From the IMG/VR virus record IMGVR_UViG_3300028888_000054: a DNA stretch of 64,000 bases; one strand, written 5' to 3'. Source of the DNA: a virus. Its lineage: Duplodnaviria > Caudoviricetes. Shown piece after piece: positions 3,556 to 21,355 of this stretch; the stretch's first letter is position 1, and the number at the start of each line of letters is the position of its first letter. The notes beneath the pieces were generated by a model. That model was not told the origin of the DNA, made no database searches, and saw nothing but the letters and a program-made list of their open reading frames with translations. Made by a program: the position numbers and the translations under genes.

Positions 3556-3879
3556 CTACTGGTTTGCTGTTTGTCCAACGCCAGGCTGGCTTGCCATCTG
3601 ACCAGTTGCCATTTGTTGCTGAGGCTGTTGAACTTGCTGAGGCTGCTGAGCCTGTTGAATTTGCTGAGCCTGTTGAGCCTGCATTGCTTCTGTTTGTTTT
3701 TGTTTTAATTGCTGAGCAACTAATTGCTGAAATGACTGAAATGGCTTCAATAAATCTGGGTTATTTTTTAAGCTCATTGCAGTTTGCTCGTTTTGCTTGT
3801 TTAATTTGTCTAAGTTTTGAATTTCTTTTGCTATAAGTGTTGGATCCAAAGCTTCATTTACCAATTGTTTCAATGTCAT
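3556..3879 (-). CDS. Gln-rich hypothetical protein, possible internal head protein; start probably 3879 (MTLKQLVNEAL)
   Basis: GGAG RBS, ATGA overlap with the upstream gene, Q-rich C-terminus. Confidence 0.6.
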   Translation of the reverse strand: MTLKQLVNEALDPTLIAKEIQNLDKLNKQNEQTAMSLKNNPDLLKPFQSFQQLVAQQLKQKQTEAMQAQQAQQIQQAQQPQQVQQPQQQMATGQMASQPGVGQTANQ

Positions 3880-4253
3880 ATTATATCTCTCCATATCCTA
3901 GCTGGACCCGTAAGTCCAAAAGCATTTAGTATATTTTTTGCTTCCGCAGAAGTTAAAAATCTTTCATCTTCAATTATCTTTTCTTCGTTGTTTTCATCGT
4001 TTTCAATTACATCTTTGTCGGTTCCGTCATATTCTGAATCATCCTTTTCTAACTCTGGGCTTGGTTCTGACTCAACAATTGGTTCTTCAATAATTCTGTC
4101 TTCTGGAAGTTTGTCAAAGTCAAAATCATCAAACTCGTAAAAACACTCGTTCCCCTCGCTATCTATACAGCGAATCAAACCGTCATCTGTTTTAGATAAC
4201 GGTGTTACAAGAGAACCATTTAATAAATCTGACAATTCGTTATATTTAAACAT
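3876..4253 (-). CDS. Acidic hypothetical protein
   Basis: ORF track; overlaps both neighbours. Confidence 0.6.
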   Translation of the reverse strand: MFKYNELSDLLNGSLVTPLSKTDDGLIRCIDSEGNECFYEFDDFDFDKLPEDRIIEEPIVESEPSPELEKDDSEYDGTDKDVIENDENNEEKIIEDERFLTSAEAKNILNAFGLTGPARIWRDII

Positions 4254-7347: not shown

Positions 7348-7774
7348 AATCCTTTACATAGTGCTGCCCTGGATCGAGCTCTTTATCTTCTGGTTCTAGT
7401 GCTTGCGACATAACTGGAGAAGAAGTATAATATACTGGATTTACCCCATACATCCCCGTCTGGGCAGAATTACGGCATGCCCACATAAATGAAGACGCAA
7501 CTTGCGGATCAAAAAAGCGTATTCGAACTTCAGCTGCTTGCATATTAGGGTCGTATCCTGCAGCCTCTATGTTACAACTTTCAAGCATCCATGAGTTTGG
7601 ATTATTTAATAAAACTTCTGCAATATTTTGACTACTGAGCGTCATTGCTTGCTGCTGCACTTGTGCCCTAAGATTAGACATATCTGCTAAATAATCTTGA
7701 TAAACACCGATACTTGACGTAAGTTCTATATTATTTCTTTTTAAAGCTTCTATAACTTTTTGCGAAATCCCCAC
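7334..7774 (-). CDS. Hypothetical protein with weak KTSC-like segment
   Basis: GTG start overlaps the upstream TAG; SCNIEAAGYDP...EVRIRF weakly resembles a KTSC N-terminus. Confidence 0.5.
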   Translation of the reverse strand: MGISQKVIEALKRNNIELTSSIGVYQDYLADMSNLRAQVQQQAMTLSSQNIAEVLLNNPNSWMLESCNIEAAGYDPNMQAAEVRIRFFDPQVASSFMWACRNSAQTGMYGVNPVYYTSSPVMSQALEPEDKELDPGQHYVKDFGDD

Positions 7775-9300
7775 TAATTACTCCTTGGCTGGTATCTAAC
7801 AAGCATCGCCCTAATAGTATCTGGATTTGTAACCCAGTTTCTACTTCCAAACAAAATACCACCATTATCATCTGGATAAACTTTCATAAGATAAAAACCC
7901 GTCAAAAGTTTTTCCTTTATATGTTCATAGTATGACGCAAAGCAAGGAATTGTCAACTCCTCTCCGTTGCAATCTTCAGCAGTTATAAAAACCATCATCT
8001 TTCCATTCTTCTGCTGATGACATCTTAAATCTTTTACATGAACAAATACATAAGCAGATGCCTTATCTTCTTCACGAATTTCATTAAAATCTCTTAAACA
8101 CTTATTAAGAGATTTTAATTTTTCAATTTTTGCAACCATATCATCTGAGAATACTCCGTGAAAGAAACTACCACTAAGATAATTCTTTTCCATTTCCATA
8201 TATTCTTCATTTGAGGTCTTACCATCTAAATAATGATCTTCTACACATTTTTCCCAAACTTCTCTAAGTTTGTCTGGATTTTTGCTTGTCTTTTTATCAA
8301 CATAAAATTGCTCTGTGATTTTAAGATACTTTTTTCTTTCACCTTCAGGTATTAAATCATCAAAAGCACCACCACCAATTAAAGCAAGAGTGATTCTCTT
8401 ATTAACCTTAGTTCCAAGAGTTTTAATTATAAAATCAATAATACTCTTATAACCACCTTCTCTATGTTCTATAATGTTCTTTGCTGGTTCTTCACCAACA
8501 CCTTTAATTTCATTAAGCCCAAATCTTATTTCTTTTTCAGAAATTGGAGTAAAGTGAAGATTAGAACTATTTACATCAGGTGGCAAAATTTTAAAACCAT
8601 TTTTTTGAGCAGATTTAATAGAATCTTTTATAACATCATTTTTTGTTGCGTCATATGTTAAAGATGCAGCCCAAAAATATGGTTTAAAATAACGAGACAT
8701 ATAAAGAGTCTCACAAGCAACATAAGTATATGCGGCGGCGTGAGATTTATTAAAAGAATAAGCTGACAAAGTAATAAGATCTGCAGTAAACTCATCAATT
8801 TCCGCAGTTGTTAATTTACTCTTCGCTTCTTCTTTAATTGTATTAACCAATTTATCCCAAGCGTCCAAATCTTCTTGCTTTTTATTTGCCTTACCGAGTT
8901 TCTTCAAAAGTCCACGCGCGTAATTACCCTTTATTTTTCCATTTGAGAGATCTTCTACGAGTTTCATAATCTCCTCTTGGAAGAGGATACAGCCATGAGA
9001 ATCTTTCAAGAATTTAGATATAGGCTCTGGATACTTTGATCCTTCCGTTCCGTTTGCCACGAAGTCGTCAAACGAGAACGAAGAACCTGGTCTCGACAAA
9101 GCATTTAAACAAGTGAGTTCGTCAAAGTTTTGAGGAATTGCTCTCTGAATCATACCAGATGCAGTATTACCTGAAAACTGAAATATATTCGCTTGACTCT
9201 CATTTACTTGTTGGTATAACTGTTTATCTTCATAAGACATTCCATAATATAAAAATTCTTTTAATTCTTGCTTACTGACATTTTCTTGTAAAATTTTCAT
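7774..9300 (-). CDS. dnaE: DNA polymerase III alpha, C-terminal fragment (fingers, HhH, OB); start probably 9300
   Basis: IFQF, ALSRPG, SHGCILFQEE, YSFNKSHAAAY, ILPPDVNSS, IRFGLNEIKGVGE motifs. Confidence 0.9.
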   Translation of the reverse strand: MKILQENVSKQELKEFLYYGMSYEDKQLYQQVNESQANIFQFSGNTASGMIQRAIPQNFDELTCLNALSRPGSSFSFDDFVANGTEGSKYPEPISKFLKDSHGCILFQEEIMKLVEDLSNGKIKGNYARGLLKKLGKANKKQEDLDAWDKLVNTIKEEAKSKLTTAEIDEFTADLITLSAYSFNKSHAAAYTYVACETLYMSRYFKPYFWAASLTYDATKNDVIKDSIKSAQKNGFKILPPDVNSSNLHFTPISEKEIRFGLNEIKGVGEEPAKNIIEHREGGYKSIIDFIIKTLGTKVNKRITLALIGGGAFDDLIPEGERKKYLKITEQFYVDKKTSKNPDKLREVWEKCVEDHYLDGKTSNEEYMEMEKNYLSGSFFHGVFSDDMVAKIEKLKSLNKCLRDFNEIREEDKASAYVFVHVKDLRCHQQKNGKMMVFITAEDCNGEELTIPCFASYYEHIKEKLLTGFYLMKVYPDDNGGILFGSRNWVTNPDTIRAMLVRYQPRSN

Positions 9301-9306
9301 GATTAA

Positions 9307-9335
9307 ATTATACCCCTGAAGCTTTATTTTGTAAA
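9307..9335 (-). promoter_or_regulatory. sigma70-type promoter giving a leaderless mRNA for the DnaE C-terminal fragment
   Basis: TTTACA-17-TATAAT, then 6 nt to ATG 9300. Confidence 0.65.
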
Positions 9336-10180
9336 TATGATTTTGATACAATTTTTACAATCCCATCGTCGTCTTCAATCTTTACAAGCTCTTCATCTAC
9401 AGATTCTACAGCATTTGAAATTACTTCCAAAACTGTAATTGCCAAAAAGTCATACTTAATTACTCCAAGTTCATCCAACTCTGTGTTTCCACCATTTTCT
9501 ACAAACGCAGATGCTACTCCATCCTTTGTATGAACAACTGGAATATATTCCCAAACTGGTTTATCCATAATAAGACATCCACCTGCGTGCTGACCAACCT
9601 GACGCACCTGTCCTATAATTTTTGGAGTAAAGTCCAAATATGCTTTATTTCTCTCGTAAGTTTCATAAAGAACTGGATGATTTTCTGCATACATTTTCAT
9701 ATTTTCTTCAAAGCTCAACTCTTCATCAAGTTCCTTACAGAAATCATTACTCTCTTTAAATGGCACTTCACACTTTCTGAGAATATCCTTAATTGCAGAA
9801 GCTAAACCAACTGTTCCATAAGCCGCTACGCCCATTACTCTTTCGGGGCCATACTTTTCAATAAGCATTTGCTTTGCAGCTTCTTTTGCTTTTGGCTCGA
9901 AGTCTGTATCAATATCCAAACCACCAGAACCGCCACGTTTAATCTGAACAATTTCAAGAGGCTTTGATAAATCTACTTTGTCTGTTTTACCCAAAAAGAA
10001 CGGAAGAACATATCTATCATCGCATCTTTTTTTTGAATTTAAAATTTCATCAGCTATATTTATTTTTTCATCTTCTAATAACCACTTTGCTCTTCTTAGC
10101 TCTTTAAGAGCACGATCTTTATATTCTGGATACTCTTTTATTTTTTGAGCAACTAATTTCTTTAAATCTTCAAAAGTCAT
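9308..10180 (-). CDS. dnaE: DNA polymerase III alpha, middle catalytic (palm/thumb) fragment
   Basis: LDIDTDF, RQVGQHAGG and GVIKYDFL motifs carry the three catalytic Asp residues. Confidence 0.9.
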   Translation of the reverse strand: MTFEDLKKLVAQKIKEYPEYKDRALKELRRAKWLLEDEKINIADEILNSKKRCDDRYVLPFFLGKTDKVDLSKPLEIVQIKRGGSGGLDIDTDFEPKAKEAAKQMLIEKYGPERVMGVAAYGTVGLASAIKDILRKCEVPFKESNDFCKELDEELSFEENMKMYAENHPVLYETYERNKAYLDFTPKIIGQVRQVGQHAGGCLIMDKPVWEYIPVVHTKDGVASAFVENGGNTELDELGVIKYDFLAITVLEVISNAVESVDEELVKIEDDDGIVKIVSKSYLQNKASGV

Positions 10181-11124
10181 AAATTTTCCTCTAAAATTTC
10201 TTCTATAATTTTATAATCCCAATAAGGAATTGTCAATAATTTTATTTTTTTATTTTTTGCAAAACACTTTTTTATATCATCTCTTTCTTTTTGCTCTAAC
10301 AGATTTTTATTACCGCCAAAATAATCTATCGGTTTATAATGTTGCACACCTTGATACTCAATTAAAAGATTTTTGGAAGGAATGTAAAAGTCAAATGGTA
10401 ATGGTTTTTGGGCTTTTCCGCAACAATCTTTGAAAATAAATTCTTGATTATAACTTATTCTTTTTGCTTCTAAGTAGACTCTAATTTTTCTTTCACCTTT
10501 ACTTTCTCTGCATTTTGGGCAACTGTTATTCTGGTTTTCAGAAATATGATGCATTGGTGTTTGAAAAAAACTTCCGTGTTTTGGGCAAATAATTTCTATT
10601 TTTGTATGATTATTTATATAATTTACTTTTGAGTAATCATATCTATCACCATGAATTTCTTTTGCTTTTTTAACAAACTCTTCTGTTGTTAATCTTCTTT
10701 TTAAGGATCTATCATCTTGAGCGCATTTTGGACACTTATCTCCGCTTAAATGATTTGTTGGTGTTTGAAAAAAACTTCCATGTTTTGGACAAATAATTTC
10801 TATTTTTGTTTTTGCATTTATATAATTTACTTTTGAATAATCATATTTATCTCCATGAACTTCTTTTGCTTTTTTAACAAACTCTTCTGTTGTTAATCTT
10901 TGCTTTTCCCCTTTTTCTTTAAGTTTTTGTTTTCCACAGTCTGGGCACCCTTGTCCTCTAAAATGCTGTCCAGGAGTCTGTTTAAAAGAACCATGTTTTG
11001 GACAAATAATTTCTATTTTTGTTTGATAATTAACATAATTAACCATTGAATAATCATATTTATCACCATGAACTTCTTTTGCTTTTTTAATAAATTCTTC
11101 TGTTGTTAATTTTTTAGTAGTCAT
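10177..11124 (-). mobile_element. Free-standing homing endonuclease: three Zn-ribbon repeats plus a Vsr/DUF559-like nuclease
   Basis: 3x HGDKYDYS...ICPKHGxFxQxP..H....CPxC; PFDFYIP...IEYQGVQHY; lies between dnaE fragments. Confidence 0.82.
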
Positions 11125-11162
11125 ATATTTATCTTGTTACCGATCGAACTTTTATAACAAAT

Positions 11163-12410
11163 TTATCTCTCGTTAAAATAATCATATTTTACACTCACTA
11201 ATCTTTCAGAAGATACAAACCTTTCAAACAATAATCCAAGTTTAATTGGATCAATTACCCAAGAAGTAATTCCAAGACAAGCACAAGTCAAACTTCCACC
11301 TGCAGAACCGCGCCCACTTCCAAGCATATACTCCTGCTGTTTTGCCCAATTAATTACAGAAGACAAATTCAACAAATAACGATAAGCACCCTTCTTTAAA
11401 AGAGTCTCAAGTTCTAGTTCAAGTCTGTCCTTATATTCTTGTGGACAATCATCATAATCACAACCAAAATGCTTTGCCAGTCCTTCTTTTGCAAGTTTTA
11501 CAAAATCTTCTTCCTCATCAAAAGAGAATCTTGGCAACTTCATACCTGTCCCCAAAGGAATAACAAAATTGCACTTTTCTGCAATCTTATCTGAATTTGC
11601 ACACCATTCTTCTATTTGTTCATCTGTGTATCCATAATTCCAACCCTTGTTAAACTGCTTGAAATCATCTACGCTCTGATAGAACAATGATTTACACTTG
11701 TATGTATCATCTCCTTCTGAATCTTCATCTTTTCTAAGATTGAAAATAAATCTCTGAGTTTGCGCACCTTCTCTTGTTGCATAATGCACGTCGCCCGTAA
11801 TTACAACGGGAACGTTATATTTTTCTGCAATTTTTATAATCCAATCATTATATTTCTTTTGGTCTTCTACAAGTTCGTTTAACTGAATTTCGGCATAAAA
11901 GTTTTCGCCAAACTCATCAACAAATCTTTTAAAATAAGCTTCTGCTTTTTCTTCATTGCCTGCAAGAACGCATTGAGAGAATATAGATGCCAAACAAGCC
12001 GAGCCTACAATTATCCCTTCTTTGTATTGAAACAATTCTTCAAATGTATTTCTTGGTTTATAATAAAAGTGATCTTCATCAATGTTTGAGATATAATTCA
12101 AATGACAAAGATTTTTCCAACCAGTTTCATTAGAAGCCAAAAGAATAATATGATTATAATGAGTTCTCTTTCTTTTCTTACCTTCCATTGTTACCAATTC
12201 TTCTACAAGATATCCTTCCATTCCGAGAATTGGTTTTACACCTTTTGAAATTGCATACTGTTGAAATTTAAAAAGTCCAGACATCATTCCGTGGTCTGTT
12301 AAGGCAAGCGCTTTATGCCCATTATTTACTGCCTGATCTACTAATTCTGTTACTGAAGATACAGCGTCATAAAATGACCCCTCTTTACTATGAACATGTA
12401 AATGAACCAT
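11163..12410 (-). CDS. dnaE: DNA polymerase III alpha, N-terminal fragment (PHP domain and start of palm); start 12410
   Basis: HLHVHS, ALTDHG, GDVHY, GRGSAGGSL, LLFERF motifs; GAGGTG RBS. Confidence 0.92.
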   Translation of the reverse strand: MVHLHVHSKEGSFYDAVSSVTELVDQAVNNGHKALALTDHGMMSGLFKFQQYAISKGVKPILGMEGYLVEELVTMEGKKRKRTHYNHIILLASNETGWKNLCHLNYISNIDEDHFYYKPRNTFEELFQYKEGIIVGSACLASIFSQCVLAGNEEKAEAYFKRFVDEFGENFYAEIQLNELVEDQKKYNDWIIKIAEKYNVPVVITGDVHYATREGAQTQRFIFNLRKDEDSEGDDTYKCKSLFYQSVDDFKQFNKGWNYGYTDEQIEEWCANSDKIAEKCNFVIPLGTGMKLPRFSFDEEEDFVKLAKEGLAKHFGCDYDDCPQEYKDRLELELETLLKKGAYRYLLNLSSVINWAKQQEYMLGSGRGSAGGSLTCACLGITSWVIDPIKLGLLFERFVSSERLVSVKYDYFNER

Positions 12411-12432
12411 CTTTTCACCTCTTTTTCTTTTA

Positions 12433-12461
12433 ATTATACCACAAATAAAAAAAGCAGTCAA
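12433..12461 (-). promoter_or_regulatory. sigma70 promoter with extended -10, embedded in a terminator (12447-12476)
   Basis: TTGACT-17-TATAAT with TG-n; GCAGTCA / TGACTGC hairpin. Confidence 0.7.
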
Positions 12462-14112: not shown

Positions 14113-14217
14113 AAGCAAATTATATATAAATATATAAAATTTGTCAAGAACAAATTTTGCTTAAATCTATTTTTTTCGCATGTATTCAAGATAAAATTAA
14201 ACGGAGGTTTTAGTTTA

Positions 14218-15061: not shown

Positions 15062-16555
15062 ATGCTTACAAATAATTTAGTTGATAAAGCGCGTTTTGAA
15101 GAGCAGCTTAACGACCGTTGGTCTTGGATCACAGAAGACATCGAAGATGCCGAAACAAGACTTAATACTCAATTGGTTCTTGAAAACTCATATAGATATA
15201 TGATTCAAGAAGGTTCTATTGCACGCAACTGGCTTGAAAATAACATTCTTTCAGAAGAAGTTATCGAAGAAGCGCCACAGATGAGAGGAGCAGTTGGTGA
15301 TTATGTAATCCCTAAAGTAATGTTCCCAATCATCAGACGTGTTATGCCAGAACTTATTGCTAACAAATTGGTTTCAGTTCAGCCAATTCAGCAGCCAACT
15401 GGTGTAATTTACTACATCAATTACGACTACTCAAATGACAAGGGAACTATCAAAGCAGGCAACGAATTCTCTGGTGCACCACAGCAGACAACTCCAGCTT
15501 TCGCTACATGGTACTCTTCAGAAAAAATTGGACCTTTTGTTGCAAAAACAGATAAATCTACTGGTGTAGTTGACTTCGGTGCACAAACTGGTATCACAAA
15601 CTTCTTGGGAACAAACCCAGCTGAATATAAAATTAAACGTTTCGAAGTTTACAACAGAACAACAGGTAAAGCAATCGCTACTGTTTATGGTGGAAGCAAA
15701 GATAACGTAACATTTGACCCTGCAACTGGTGCTATTACAGTAACAGTTCCAGCATCAGCATTCTTCGGCGACGAAGATAATGAATTTGAAGCATTCTTGG
15801 TATACGATCAGGAAGGAACTTCAAAGATTCCAGAGATGGAATTCCACATCGACCACATGAACGTTGAGACAACTGAACGTAAATTGAAGGTTAGATGGAC
15901 TAAAGAAGCTGAACAGGATATGATGGCTTATCACAAGATCGACGTAGAACAGGAGCTTGTAAAAGTTGCTTCTATTCAGACAAACTACGAAGTAGACCGT
16001 GAAGTTATCAGATTCATTGATGATCATATCATCTCTGACCTTTCTCAGATTCACAACTGGACAGACGACGCAGCAACTACAGGTAATAATACACAGGGTA
16101 ACTACCTTGATAGACACCGCTGCTTGGCACAGAAACTTTATGCTGCTTGTACAAAAGTAGCTACATTCAACCACCTTGGACCATGTGATTGGGCAGTTGT
16201 ATCTCCAAAGATTGCAGCAGTTCTTCAGATGCTCCCAGACTGGAAAGCAGGTGAAATCGCTAGTGGTAAATCAACTTACTACAATGCTGGTACACTCGGA
16301 AACGGTTCTTTGGCAATCTACGTTGATCCAAACAGATGCGGTGCTCAAGAAGACGAAATCACTCTTGGATACAAATCTAAGGATTCAACATACGGTGCTG
16401 GTGTAGTTTACTCACCATACGCTAACTGGATGTCAGGAACAGTTGTTAACCCAGACAACTTCAACAACGTAAGAGGATTCTTCAACAGATATGCTATTTC
16501 TATGGCACCTCGTGGAGAATACAACTACGCAAGAGTTAGAATTAACAACTTGTAA
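15062..16555 (+). CDS. gp23: Major capsid protein (T4 gp23 family)
   Basis: IRRVMPELIA, VQPIQQPTGVIYY, RKLKVRWTKEAEQDM, GVVYSPY, RYA motifs; AGGAGG RBS. Confidence 0.95.
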   Translation: MLTNNLVDKARFEEQLNDRWSWITEDIEDAETRLNTQLVLENSYRYMIQEGSIARNWLENNILSEEVIEEAPQMRGAVGDYVIPKVMFPIIRRVMPELIANKLVSVQPIQQPTGVIYYINYDYSNDKGTIKAGNEFSGAPQQTTPAFATWYSSEKIGPFVAKTDKSTGVVDFGAQTGITNFLGTNPAEYKIKRFEVYNRTTGKAIATVYGGSKDNVTFDPATGAITVTVPASAFFGDEDNEFEAFLVYDQEGTSKIPEMEFHIDHMNVETTERKLKVRWTKEAEQDMMAYHKIDVEQELVKVASIQTNYEVDREVIRFIDDHIISDLSQIHNWTDDAATTGNNTQGNYLDRHRCLAQKLYAACTKVATFNHLGPCDWAVVSPKIAAVLQMLPDWKAGEIASGKSTYYNAGTLGNGSLAIYVDPNRCGAQEDEITLGYKSKDSTYGAGVVYSPYANWMSGTVVNPDNFNNVRGFFNRYAISMAPRGEYNYARVRINNL

Positions 16556-16580
16556 TAGATTAGCCGTCTAAGCGGCTTCA

Positions 16581-16612
16581 AACCCCGTTCTTTTTGAACG
16601 GGGTATTTTTTT
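16581..16612 (+). terminator. Terminator of the capsid operon
   Basis: ACCCCGTTC / GAACGGGGT stem plus T7. Confidence 0.8.
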
Positions 16613-16619
16613 GTCAAAT

Positions 16620-16649
16620 AAAAAAGGCTACCAATTTGGTAGCCTTTTT
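16620..16649 (-). terminator. Terminator of the flagellin gene
   Basis: GGCTACCA / TGGTAGCC stem, the same stem as the terminator at 791-816. Confidence 0.8.
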
Positions 16650-16694: not shown

Positions 16695-17543
16695 CTATTT
16701 TAACAACGCTAATACATTTTGTGATTGAGAATTTGCTTGTGACAACATAGCCACAGATGACTGTGAAAGAATCTGCTGCTTTGTATACTCTACCATTTCA
16801 GTAGCCATATCTGCATCTCTCACTCTTGATTCTGCAGCTTGTGTGTTTTCTGCTGCTATGTTAATACCTTTCTGAGCCATCTCCATTCTGTTCTGATAAG
16901 CGCCAAGATCTGCTCTCTGCTTATTTACATTCTTTAAAGCTTCGTCAAGAGTTGTAATTGTTACATTTGCCTCGTCAGGTGATGAAATAGAAATCTGATT
17001 ATCTTCACCCTGGACACCTTTCAACCCAAGAGCTGAAGCTGTCATTGTTCCAATATAAGCACGAATGTTTTGGTCAACATTTGCACCAACCTGGAATTGC
17101 ATTATACCATCAGACTCTCTTGAAAATCTACCAGTCAAAAGGTTCATTCCGTTAAACTGAGCAGAAGAAGCAATTCTATCTACTTCAGCAACAAGCTGAG
17201 AAACTTCTACCTGAATCTGCATTCTGTCTTCATCTGAGTATACACCATTTGAAGCCTGAACTGCAAGTTCGCGAATTCTCTGAAGAACATCAGTTGTTTC
17301 TGCAAGATAACCTTCTGCTACCTGAACAAAAGAAACTGCATCGCCAATGTTTCTTGAAGCTTGACTAAGACCTCTAATTTGAGATCTCATTTTTTCAGAT
17401 ACAGCTAAGCCAGAAGCATCATCTCCTGCTTTGTTAATTCTTTCACCGCTTGAAAGTTTTGCCATTGAGTTCTGTAAGTTTGCTGCATTAATTCCTTCTT
17501 GGCGACTAGCAAACAAACTTGCCATATTGTTATTTATTACCAT
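16695..17543 (-). CDS. flaB: Flagellin, spirochete FlaB type
   Basis: [65 protein letters not shown]; 282 aa with a short variable region as in Treponema FlaB. Confidence 0.95.
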
Positions 17544-17547
17544 AGAC

Positions 17548-17597
17548 TACCCCTCCTTGGGTATAAAAAATATCGACAGATTTCTCTGCCGACTTTA
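17548..17597 (-). promoter_or_regulatory. sigma28-like promoter overlapping an upstream terminator hairpin, plus a CsrA-like SD hairpin
   Basis: TAAA-16-GTCGATAT (17597-17570); TACCC-AAGGAG-GGGTA stem-loop (17563-17548). Confidence 0.55.
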
Positions 17598-17604
17598 ATT
17601 TAAC

Positions 17605-18141
17605 TTAGATTAAATCTTCTCTTCCAATGAACGTCAAAGCCTTTGCACGGTTCTTGTGAATCTTATCATAATTAGGATATGACAATTTGCTTGTTCCACG
17701 AGTGTGAGAATAAATCTCTGGGAAGAAATAGCATCTTGATCTGATGTAGAAGAAGTTCCACAAATCCAAATCTTTATTTTTTATGGCTCTTCCGTCCTTT
17801 CCTTCCTTGCGGGCGATAGCATCTTTCAATGCCTCTGCAACACCAACGATTGGCACATCGTCATCTTTGTTTGACTTGTAAACAGAGCCGATAAACACTT
17901 CTCCGTCTTCGCCCTTAATCGCTACCAATGTTCCGCGTGGCTTTGTTCTTTCAAGCTGGAGTCTTCCGTTTCCAACTTCCTTTCCAATGAACCCGTCACG
18001 AATTCTCAAAGAAATGAAACCGTTGTTTCCATGCTCCTTTCTAAATTCATCAACGAACTTCTGTGCTTCATCTCGTGCCTTATTACGAGCTTCTCTTTTC
18101 TCTGCTGCTCTCTTCTTAGCAGCTTCTTCAAATTTATTCAT
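17605..18141 (-). CDS. Hypothetical phage protein
   Basis: AAGGAG RBS; intact ORF. Confidence 0.65.
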   Translation of the reverse strand: MNKFEEAAKKRAAEKREARNKARDEAQKFVDEFRKEHGNNGFISLRIRDGFIGKEVGNGRLQLERTKPRGTLVAIKGEDGEVFIGSVYKSNKDDDVPIVGVAEALKDAIARKEGKDGRAIKNKDLDLWNFFYIRSRCYFFPEIYSHTRGTSKLSYPNYDKIHKNRAKALTFIGREDLI

Positions 18142-18155
18142 CTTTTTCTCCTTTC

Positions 18156-19454
18156 TTAAAAATTATAAGACATTATCGCGTTTTTGTCAATCTTACTAAC
18201 AACTTCTAAAAAATCTTCTTCTCGCTTTCGCTCCTCTGCAGACTTTCCAGAATATACTACCCTTGGACACCATTTATACTCACATTTATCAGCTTGCTTA
18301 AAATGGTCAAACTGTTCAATACCATAATTTGCCGCCTTACATAAGTTTTGTAAAGTTAACATAGCTCCAACTGGCGGATTTTTACCATTAAATAAATCCT
18401 CGTAAAACTTTATAACATTTCTTGCACTTTCCCAAAAGTTCCAATCCTTGTGTTTGTGAATAGTTGGTGGCGCATCAAAACCTACAAACTCTTCATAAAA
18501 TAATAAATCAGGGCCTATTATAGAATAGGCTGCTTTATCACCATTTTTATATGTTCCCATACCAAATGTAGAATATCCCTGCTCATGCTCCCAAGGCATA
18601 TCACTCAAAGAATTTATATAAACTTCAAAATCTTCTCTGATTGAAGATCCAGGTTTATAAATTCTTGTTGCAGCAACATTAAAATGATCCTCTAATGTGT
18701 GCTCTGGATTCTCCCAAAGTGTATAAAAATCATTTACAGCTTTATAAATTTTTCTATAAACGGGATAGCCGTTAAAATCATCTCTATTGTATTTATTTTG
18801 ATACAATACAGAAATTGTAATTTCGTCGGGGTCTTCCCCTAAAATCTCAAAATCTTTCCTTAAAACATTTTCCCAGCCATCTTCTGTTGACCAGTATGTT
18901 ATTAGATCTGCAGCAACATTTATTCCTAATGTTTTTGCTAAACTCATACATTTGAAAGCGTTTTCATAATCTGGAATCAGTCTTCCATTTGCTTTTAAAA
19001 TACTTTCATCAAATGTTTGAAAACAAAATATAGCAGTTGTAAAATTATATTTTGCTAAAACTCTAATAAAATCTTCTGTTATTAAAGCTGGGTGAAGTTC
19101 TATAAGCTTTCTTGCTTTAAGAATATAATCAGGCATACTTTTCAAGTATTTTTCAAATTTTTCTGCAGAAAGATAGTTTGGCGTTCCACCACCAAAAGAA
19201 ACGAGTTTTATGTCTTGTTTACTTAAAATACTATCATACCGTTTAAAAAGTTTTGGCATATATTTAAAATAAAAATCTTCAACTTCTTCTTCTGTATGGT
19301 TTTTCTTTGGGCAACCCTTATGACAGCAAAAAAGGCAATTATCATAAGTTTTGCAAAACGGATTATGTAAATAAACAACAACTGGTCTATCATTCTTTTC
19401 CCATAATTGTTTATAACTAAACAAATCTACTATATTATCACTAAACTCTAACAT
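18156..19454 (-). CDS. HemN-like (class C) radical SAM protein with CX5CX2C motif
   Basis: VYLHNPFCKTYDNCLFC, FGGGTP, QTFD motifs. Confidence 0.8.
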   Translation of the reverse strand: MLEFSDNIVDLFSYKQLWEKNDRPVVVYLHNPFCKTYDNCLFCCHKGCPKKNHTEEEVEDFYFKYMPKLFKRYDSILSKQDIKLVSFGGGTPNYLSAEKFEKYLKSMPDYILKARKLIELHPALITEDFIRVLAKYNFTTAIFCFQTFDESILKANGRLIPDYENAFKCMSLAKTLGINVAADLITYWSTEDGWENVLRKDFEILGEDPDEITISVLYQNKYNRDDFNGYPVYRKIYKAVNDFYTLWENPEHTLEDHFNVAATRIYKPGSSIREDFEVYINSLSDMPWEHEQGYSTFGMGTYKNGDKAAYSIIGPDLLFYEEFVGFDAPPTIHKHKDWNFWESARNVIKFYEDLFNGKNPPVGAMLTLQNLCKAANYGIEQFDHFKQADKCEYKWCPRVVYSGKSAEERKREEDFLEVVSKIDKNAIMSYNF

Positions 19455-20350
19455 TAATATCTATCTCTATCATCTAATTCAAAAAGTGCACTTGGAAAGA
19501 ACATCCAAAGGTGTTCTGGCTTAGCATTTTCCCCAAATTCTATATCCACATTAACAATAATACCTTTAACTTCAACATCTTCAACCGTTAATCCTTCAAC
19601 ACTATCAGACATTTTTATATTTTCACCTTTCACATCGAAGTTTACTAAATTTGATAGTATATCGTTCATCTTACCAAGCATAACAGAACCAAATATTTGC
19701 TTTTGCAAGATATTAAATCTTTTAACCTCTGTTGGTGTTTTATCTTGAAAAAGCAACTGATATCCACCTGATGACATTGCAATACAAATTGTTTTGTTGT
19801 TCTCTTTAATCCCTCTATACTTTGCCGAACCACATAAGCAAATATTAGGAAGTTTAGAACCCCACTCTATAAAATTTCCAAGTTCTATTCCACTCATTCT
19901 AAATTTTACATCTTGAATGCCGAATGCTGTAAAAATGTCTGTTAAGGCATAACAAATATGCTGTACTTCCTGCACTGCTTGCTTTGTTATTTTCATTTCT
20001 TCTACTTCTTCTTCCATATCTATTTCACCTCTTCTTTTTAATTCCTTCCAATCATCATAATCTATTGGCTTTTCTTTAATATAGTCATATTGGCAATTAC
20101 AAATAATTTCTGCCATCACTTTTTTAAAATTTGGTAAATCTTTAGGTTTAAGAGTTTTTTCAACATGCCCAATTTCTTTGGTTTTTCCTTCGATTATAAA
20201 ATCAATTGTTCCATCTTGATCAATTCCAAAAAGTCTATCTTGATAATTATGTCTTACCGCTGGATCAACATCTTTTACACTTTCTTGATTTATTAAGCAT
20301 AAAGCATACCAACTATGTAAACCTTTGTCTGTTGTAAATAACGTAACCAT
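19454..20350 (-). CDS. Hypothetical protein, leaderless start 20350
   Basis: TTGACA-17-TATAAT at 20357-20385, 6 nt before ATG; TAATG coupling to the radical SAM gene. Confidence 0.65.
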   Translation of the reverse strand: MVTLFTTDKGLHSWYALCLINQESVKDVDPAVRHNYQDRLFGIDQDGTIDFIIEGKTKEIGHVEKTLKPKDLPNFKKVMAEIICNCQYDYIKEKPIDYDDWKELKRRGEIDMEEEVEEMKITKQAVQEVQHICYALTDIFTAFGIQDVKFRMSGIELGNFIEWGSKLPNICLCGSAKYRGIKENNKTICIAMSSGGYQLLFQDKTPTEVKRFNILQKQIFGSVMLGKMNDILSNLVNFDVKGENIKMSDSVEGLTVEDVEVKGIIVNVDIEFGENAKPEHLWMFFPSALFELDDRDRY

Positions 20351-20389
20351 AATTAAATTATAAACAGAAATCGTAATTTTGTCAATCAA

Positions 20390-21281: not shown

Positions 21282-21355
21282 AACTTTTCTCCTTTCTTGA
21301 TTAAATTATACATATGCCAATAAATTATGTCAAGTTAATTATATTGGAGACTTAA

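Follow-up and report, generated by a model that had tools for sequence, protein, structure and literature searches.

A conserved FlaB-type flagellin gene resident in a T4-like phage: a candidate viral subunit of the Treponema periplasmic flagellum

The flagellin gene and its upstream region

A complete flagellin gene lies in a stretch of 64,000 nucleotides from a tailed phage (Caudoviricetes; IMG/VR record IMGVR_UViG_3300028888_000054), the whole of which is called the window here; loci compared with it are given numbers preceded by L. The gene occupies positions 16695 to 17543 on the minus strand as an uninterrupted open reading frame (ORF) of 282 amino acids, and it converges with the gene of a gp23-type major capsid protein (15062 to 16555, plus strand; PF07068, 8.8e-56; phrog_138), which ends 140 bp away. 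Its product matched Flagellin_N (PF00669, 4.8e-43, residues 3 to 139) and Flagellin_C (PF00700, 2.5e-25, residues 197 to 281), both far over the cut-off. It was aligned from first to last residue with solved Treponema-type flagellin chains of 284 to 286 amino acids at 363 to 383 bits, the top match being 9pil, a Treponema flagellin chain of 285 amino acids (E = 5.9e-114, 382.8 bits). A second set of chains (265 to 282 amino acids, including 6pwb, which is named flagellin B1) scored 287 to 308 bits, and non-spirochete flagellins about 210 bits. The protein is a complete spirochete FlaB core flagellin, built of the D0 and D1 domains only and belonging to the FlaB3 lineage. The ORF, its Pfam domains and its neighbours agree with the initial annotation, which had described an intact, full-length FlaB-type gene set among phage genes and convergent with the capsid gene.

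The C-terminal QNR region of flagellins is retained, and the motif LQRxRELAVQ, likewise expected from that annotation, was found at residues 87 to 96, a conserved D1 segment encoded at 17256 to 17285 (minus strand) which we take to be the region recognised by TLR5. In Treponema denticola, FlaB3 (TDE1475) has 285 amino acids and FlaB1 and FlaB2 have 286 (PMC9481697), and the O-glycosylated residues of the FlaB3 D1 domain are S115, S126, T137 and T167 (PMC13439194). The corresponding S115, S126, T137 and T166, identified as glycosylation positions by sequence only, are retained in at least 126 of 132 sequences of the phage clade described below. Pairwise ratios of nonsynonymous to synonymous divergence (dN/dS) against the window gene ranged from 0.07 to 0.14, with dS from 0.44 to more than 1, and the gene is under strong purifying selection. 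The GC content of its third codon positions (GC3) is 0.25, a phage-like value (the phage has 32% GC), with most host flaB genes at 0.26 to 0.43.

The 61-nt intergenic region ahead of the gene contains, in minus-strand order, the stop codon of a gene for a 178-amino-acid protein, a promoter-like element with a hairpin inside it, and a leader hairpin followed five bases later by the ATG. The promoter-like element, of sigma28 (FliA) type, lies at 17570 to 17597 (minus strand) and reads TAAAGTCG-N12-GTCGATAT, that is, TAAA-N16-GTCGATAT, with one mismatch in the -10 against TAAA(GTTT)-N11-12-GCCGATA[AT]. The pattern was matched once in the window, with 0.13 matches expected; it was written after the site had been seen, so that the comparative evidence weighs more. 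An intrinsic-terminator-like hairpin of the upstream gene (17572 to 17593, minus strand; 9 bp, GAAA loop, then a T run; z = -3.1 for a 93-nt region) overlaps the promoter spacer and the -10, and in this the proposal that the sigma28-like element is built into the previous gene's terminator hairpin was confirmed.

Host flaB1-like genes carry TAAAGTnn-N12-(G/T)CCGATA(A/T) in 29 of 70 loci, at constant spacing and 178 to 191 nt ahead of the start codon, and the window element has the same N16 geometry. Similar elements stand at about -110 of the isolated host flaB2-like genes, and a sigma28 promoter has been mapped for flaB2 of T. denticola (PMC9481697). Among 17 distinct phage flagellin upstream regions the element recurs in seven, 54 to 78 nt ahead of the start, and in five of the seven the spacer is free of hairpins; the copy in L133, a metagenome contig, carries GCCGATAA, and that of L140, a related phage, the full TAAAGTTT-N11-GCCGATAA. 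No sigma28-type element was found within 300 nt upstream of the host FlaB3-like gene, so the phage genes did not simply inherit the promoter of their nearest host relative. A perfect sigma70 consensus promoter (TTGACA-17-TATAAT; 18162 to 18190, minus strand) precedes the 178-amino-acid gene, and judging from this arrangement the hairpin probably keeps early read-through out of the flagellin gene, whose transcription would then fall to sigma28.

The leader hairpin (17548 to 17563, minus strand) stands where the sigma28 transcript is predicted to have its 5' end. Sequence and fold agree with the earlier description of a Shine-Dalgarno sequence in the loop of TACCC-AAGGAG-GGGTA, and the loop also holds a GGA overlapping the Shine-Dalgarno sequence, as in leaders controlled by CsrA. 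Four of the five pairs have changed on both sides, 93% of the alignment cells are paired, and none of 500 shuffles reached the covariation score. The stems vary around a constant AGGAG loop (CGTGC/GCACG in L132, TGCGC/GCGCA in L134, others in L006 and L007), and the pairing is conserved through compensatory changes. A second GGA hairpin is present upstream in L006, L007, L135, L141 and L097. The leaders of host FlaB3-like genes (L017 to L096) are unlike those of the phages: they have a hairpin about 75 nt upstream of the gene with the loop CA(U/C/A)GA(U/G)G, and a Shine-Dalgarno region reading ACAUGGAGGGCAC.

Residence in phages, exchange and origin

The carrier is a large T4-like phage infecting gut or rumen Treponema. 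Genes near the flagellin encode a prohead protease, a T4 baseplate protein, gp25, a DnaE-type polymerase, SbcC, the anaerobic ribonucleotide reductase NrdD and a dUTPase, and the T4-like families PF07068, PF03420, PF04965 and PF12322 were all found in the window; its capsid protein is about 25% identical to those of known T4-like phages. The exact flagellin protein is recorded on four contigs, the longest of 191,495 bp. The possibility, raised at annotation, of a chimeric assembly at the junctions is contradicted by independent contigs with the flagellin in the same slot. On L133 the gene order is the same, with 98% identity for the 178-amino-acid protein, 94% for the flagellin and 91% for the capsid protein; on the IMG/VR contigs L097 and L098, from two samples, the capsid protein is 96%, the 178-amino-acid protein 98% and the dUTPase 97% identical.

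Distant relatives with the same capsid module (L103, L105, L114 and L117; 57 to 60% identity) have no flagellin and run from the capsid gene directly to the dUTPase gene, which identifies the block at about 16.6 to 20.5 kb as an accessory insertion. The position of the flagellin also varies: in L140 it lies between homologs of the window ORFs at 3876 to 4253 and 1600 to 2547, and in L132 and L134 no capsid gene is nearby. The flagellin gene is accessory and mobile.

Exchange within a single slot was seen in L097 and L098, where the flagellin allele is 63.5% identical to that of the window and a homing endonuclease gene (phrog_655, 1.1e-39) stands between the promoter-terminator element and the flagellin. 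In L097 (L097:4733-5575, minus strand, compared with 16740 to 17570 of the window) the endonuclease is encoded by about 880 extra bases at the flagellin 5' end. DNA identity to this contig is 0.93 to 1.0 over most of the capsid gene, dips to 0.70 in the intergenic bin at 16560, is 0.98 in the final 45 nt of the flagellin gene and 0.5 to 0.7 over its remainder, and returns to 0.98 at 17580. The promoter-terminator element is retained in L097 as TAAAGTCGGCAGAGAAATCTGCCGATAA, where it fronts the endonuclease gene. The L097 allele forms a long branch within the phage clade, with a dN/dS of 0.27 against the window gene, and the swap was probably a co-conversion with the endonuclease gene.

Between the capsid and flagellin genes lies a terminator hairpin (16621 to 16649) flanked by an A run and, across the stem, by a T run, and the capsid gene has a terminator of its own at 16582 to 16604 (plus strand). 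As had been noticed earlier for a phage terminator at 791 to 816, the stem is shared: GGCTACCA...TGGTAGCC occurs in the window at 797 to 816 and 16626 to 16644 only, with no occurrence expected by chance. The GGCTACCA stem terminator is conserved in L097, L098 and L133 irrespective of which flagellin allele they carry, and is missing from the other loci. Since both the promoter and this terminator are kept in L097 (the terminator also in L098 and L133), they belong to the slot, and it is the flagellin body that is exchanged. The stem shared with 797 to 816 was also considered as the mark of a moved flagellin cassette, a candidate that was rejected because the stem stays with the slot in these three contigs.

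The closest cellular flagellins, among the matches listed, are those of gut and rumen Treponema, at 71 to 77% identity. Four of the five Treponema genomes searched have three flaB paralogs and the fifth showed two, laid out as a tandem pair and an isolated gene. The closest host paralog was always the downstream member of the tandem pair, at 72 to 77% identity, compared with 64 to 68% for the other paralogs. As the initial annotation had suggested, a phylogeny against the Treponema paralogs was computed, by maximum likelihood from 83 rows comprising phage-context flagellins, unplaced metagenome rows, a sample of database proteins 84 to 94% identical, and bacterial rows. All phage-context flagellins except the distant L011 fall into one clade together with the 84 to 94% identical proteins and the unplaced metagenome rows (Shimodaira-Hasegawa approximate likelihood ratio test, 97). 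This clade is sister (support 93) to the bacterial FlaB3-like group, and no bacterial tandem-locus row lies inside it. Being sister and not nested, it is read as a phage branch of the FlaB3 lineage rather than as an ortholog, and by this topology the phage flagellins branched off the host FlaB3-like lineage.

The clade spans the T4-like lineage of the window, the related phage L140, and unrelated jumbo phages of 188 to 386 kb (one with terminal repeats), in which the context of the flagellin gene differs again from that in the window. In five other flagellin-bearing jumbo records the capsid protein of the window matched none and the Gp23 family matched one, weakly; the mostly blank capsid searches indicate different phage lineages. 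Of five other Treponema jumbo phage records, three (188, 239 and 300 kb) carry, besides the flagellin, a homolog of the FlaA sheath protein (PF04620, 2.7e-11 to 3.7e-8), and in two of the three the distance between the two genes is no more than about 2 kb (loci L012:10705-11538; L014, L015 and L016). No FlaA homolog was found in the 64-kb window by tblastn with the phage FlaA-like proteins (best E = 0.37), and a Pfam scan of 46 window ORFs returned no further flagellar genes.

The flagellin outside the Treponema clade, L011:8001-8807, is 47% identical and comes from a phage record of 142 kb that has terminal repeats. Distantly related homologs of the window polymerase and dUTPase are encoded nearby, and the flagellin leader has a GGA hairpin. 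A phage with a different host may here have captured a flagellin independently, for a second time.

A candidate subunit of the periplasmic filament

The periplasmic flagellum drives motility and, in Borrelia, can also shape the cell. Judged by its sequence record, the phage flagellin is a resident, selected accessory gene, and its product would probably be exported by the host export apparatus to become part of the periplasmic filament. The terminator hairpin that follows the early gene upstream would shield the flagellin gene from read-through, and host RNA polymerase with FliA would transcribe it from the overlapping sigma28-type promoter; expression would then be restricted, as we propose, to cells with a complete flagellar export apparatus. 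The leader loop, with its Shine-Dalgarno sequence and GGA, would place translation under the CsrA-FliW flagellin control of the host, or at least stabilise the mRNA. Exported through the host flagellar type III apparatus, the subunits would join the tips of existing filaments, and the phage would thereby keep up or alter the motility and shape of the infected cell during its takeover of host gene expression. FlaB3 is a late-added, distal part of the T. denticola filament (PMC13439194), and as such a subunit the phage flagellin could join filaments already in place.

FliA, FliW and CsrA were present in all five Treponema genomes, where fliW-csrA and the flaB pair are a few kb apart, and neither CsrA nor FliW was found in four jumbo phage records. 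The initial annotation had held the gene to be apparently wired to host flagellar regulation. What stands of this is the host-like promoter geometry, its recurrence, the conserved Shine-Dalgarno hairpin and the presence of the three regulators in the hosts; the action of sigma28 and CsrA on the gene is predicted.

A working filament subunit is the best reading on five grounds: the protein is conserved over its whole length, assembly helices and glycosylation sites included, the FlaA sheath co-occurs in other Treponema phages, the sigma28 promoter would limit expression to export-ready cells, the leader is of the type that serves flagellin homeostasis, and FlaB3, as the late and distal subunit, could be added to filaments already present. 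In an unlikely alternative, a cytoplasmic phage flagellin acts as a regulatory decoy that binds host FliW (and FliS) and frees CsrA; host flagellin, and perhaps other targets of CsrA, would then no longer be translated, which would spare resources for the phage. The proximity of fliW and csrA to the flaB pair in each of the five candidate host genomes, the retained C-terminal QNR region, and the fact that the phage records tested encode neither FliW nor CsrA are what such a decoy would lead one to see. A decoy would, however, need a binding surface only, and the whole protein is constrained, polymerisation helices and glycosylation sites included; the phage mRNA, with its CsrA-type hairpin, would repress itself; the FlaA sheath of other Treponema phages has no part in the FliW/CsrA circuit; and the sigma28 promoter ties expression to export-competent cells. 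Among the three consequences that had been proposed at annotation, namely altered periplasmic flagella and cell shape, titration of FliW with a reset of CsrA-dependent translation, and release of a TLR5 agonist on lysis, the first is the best supported.

Several observations nevertheless weigh against a filament subunit under host control. Ten positions are fixed in the phage clade unlike in the host group (F11, E16, S26, D68, A69, V73, A76, V101, A162 and M220), so that the phage flagellin may act differently in the filament, and the phage clade shows more variation in the C-terminal D0 segment than the host FlaB3-like proteins do. Two GGA sites are usual in flagellin leaders controlled by CsrA, and in the window there is a single one, with no second site between the predicted start (about 17562 to 17564) and the ATG. 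A hairpin at the extreme 5' end could serve mRNA stability or ribosome access alone. Because the -10 overlaps an arm of the terminator, part of the promoter match in the window lineage is shared with that hairpin. Finally, the description of the clade as phage-only includes 84 to 94% identical proteins most of which were placed without genomic context.

A structural or decorative role in the virion, for which a flagellin-like protein would have been recruited, is very unlikely. It is suggested by the convergence with the major capsid gene at a distance of 140 bp and by the terminator shared with that gene, but the adjacency does not hold across phages: the flagellin is placed elsewhere in L140, has no capsid gene nearby in L132 and L134, stands in yet another context in the unrelated jumbo phages, and is absent from distant relatives that share the capsid module. 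No flagellin feature has been lost, and the promoter is still of the host type.

Still less credence is given to an effect on the animal as the selected function, in which lysis would free monomeric phage flagellin to act on TLR5 in the gut. The TLR5-linked segment at residues 87 to 96 is present. The flagellin of Treponema pallidum is reported to bind TLR5 through its D1 domain (PMC6815820), which would lend this effect some footing. The motif is, however, common to most flagellins and also required for filament assembly, host flagellin is likewise freed by lysis, a lytic phage has no obvious gain from it, and nothing in the locus points to an animal; such an effect would at most be a side effect.

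An assembly chimera or a recent, functionless passenger gene, as might be supposed from a gene GC content of 0.39 above the window mean of 0.32, is scarcely credible and both were rejected, given that the junctions recur in independent contigs from different samples, the capsid gene is equally GC-rich (0.405) and the flagellin GC3 of 0.25 phage-like, dN/dS is about 0.1 over dS up to 0.9, and the clade in the tree is phage-only.

A wider proposition may be put forward tentatively. The phage-only FlaB clade, joined by FlaA in some phages, may let lytic Treponema phages take over both the supply and the make-up of periplasmic flagella through the host sigma28 checkpoint and a CsrA-type leader, with cassettes exchanged by way of homing endonucleases; this would be organelle remodelling by a lytic virus and not lysogenic conversion.

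Neighbouring features and comparison with known systems

The 178-amino-acid viral protein encoded next to the flagellin (17605 to 18141, minus strand) is kept beside it in five related phage loci, at 98% identity in L097, L098 and L133 and 53 to 54% in L132 and L134. Searches of Pfam, PHROG and NCBIfam gave no family for it, and the Atlas places it in viral hypothetical clusters. Its structural model is confident (predicted local distance difference test score 89.9) and gave weak best folds: RAD52 in Foldseek at E = 0.1, and an anti-CBASS protein and dsRBD-like folds in VIA at Z = 4.8. Considered as a possible FliS- or FliW-like flagellin chaperone, it is not recognisable as one by family or by fold. 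The accessory block continues at 18156 to 20389 (minus strand) with a HemN-like radical SAM protein (18156 to 19454; PF04055 and TIGR00538 below the cut-off), which is 63% identical in L097, and an ORF of 311 amino acids that is missing from L097.

The promoter ahead of the 178-amino-acid gene is one of four perfect sigma70 promoters (TTGACA-17-TATAAT) on the minus strand, the others lying at 21305 to 21333, 20357 to 20385 and 14119 to 14147; they are probably early phage promoters. The sequence TAAGTTAA occurs 11 times in the window, which equals the chance number (minus strand, 301, 5411, 17600, 28230, 29605 and 35205; plus strand, 35832, 38914, 39951, 42834 and 53489). At least eight copies stand 4 to 57 nt ahead of a start codon on the same strand, one of them fronting the flagellin promoter, with those at 301, 28230 and 35205 judged by coordinates alone; TAAGTTAA may be a phage promoter or processing signal. 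The DnaE-type polymerase is seemingly split (7774 to 12461, minus strand), with the PHP and first polymerase domains in 11163 to 12461. Another of the 46 scanned ORFs has matches to Finger and HHH domains, and still others to zinc-finger and DUF723 families that may mark mobile genes; the scan gives these families for the set of ORFs and not ORF by ORF. No tRNA genes were found in the 64-kb window.

No paper on a phage-encoded spirochete flagellin was found in full-text literature searches, and jumbo-phage surveys made no mention of flagella or Treponema. Here a lytic-type, T4-like spirochete phage keeps the core subunit of an internal, periplasmic flagellum. If the protein is assembled, an infected Treponema would swim, or be shaped, by a partly viral filament. 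The phage would then be taking over its host in a new way, in a rumen and gut genus that is abundant and has few described phages. The locus is also a compact natural test case, in which a sigma28 promoter is fused to a terminator, the Shine-Dalgarno hairpin of a 20-nt leader shows covariation, and alleles have been swapped naturally within a single slot.

Some auxiliary genes of lytic phages, such as cyanophage psbA, are host-derived and replace a limiting host protein. The flagellin gene resembles them as a host gene kept under purifying selection, with a phage-specific clade and phage-like composition; it differs in that its product is a secreted, self-assembling organelle subunit and not a metabolic protein. 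Treponema FlaB3, a minor core flagellin of the periplasmic filament (T. denticola TDE1475; PMC9481697, PMC13439194) is of the same length class, has the same D0-D1-only build and shares the glycosylated Ser/Thr positions, whereas the window protein is phage-encoded, belongs to a separate clade and has the ten fixed differences. The genes also differ in control: that of the window has its own sigma28-type promoter 27 nt ahead of the start codon, compared with none within 300 nt for the host FlaB3-like gene, and its predicted leader is about 20 nt long, compared with about 150 nt from the host flaB1-like promoter.

A partner switch between CsrA, FliW and flagellin operates in Bacillus, Campylobacter and Borrelia (as summarised in PMC9481697). 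The phage gene shares with it a flagellin mRNA in which a hairpin loop at the Shine-Dalgarno sequence contains GGA, and hosts with fliW and csrA; it differs in having a single GGA site, a putative one for CsrA, and the host FlaB3-like leaders differ by their upstream CA(U/C/A)GA-loop hairpin and their ACAUGGAGGGCAC region.

The closest published case is FRphi, a temperate flagellin-remodelling phage of Enterobacter that expresses the flagellin FliC-P and silences host fliC with the RNA-guided repressor TldR (PMC13418256; bioRxiv 10.1101/2023.11.30.569447). So far this is the one setting in which phage-encoded flagellin has been studied: the phage is temperate, and the external flagellin of the Enterobacter lysogen is replaced (PMC13418256). 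Both phages carry a flagellin isoform, and that of FRphi is built into host flagella and alters their properties. The neighbours of the window flagellin are the capsid gene and the 178-amino-acid protein, with no TldR or nuclease-dead TnpB beside it, and in the 64 kb of phage seen the Pfam scan of 46 ORFs returned neither an integrase nor a TnpB/TldR-type family, in contrast to the temperate arrangement of FRphi. FRphi is a temperate siphovirus that acts in lysogens on external flagella through a flagellin with large outer domains, whereas the window belongs to a T4-like phage whose flagellin lacks outer domains, would act on periplasmic flagella, and is apparently controlled by host sigma28 and perhaps by CsrA; the timing of the two probably differs as well.

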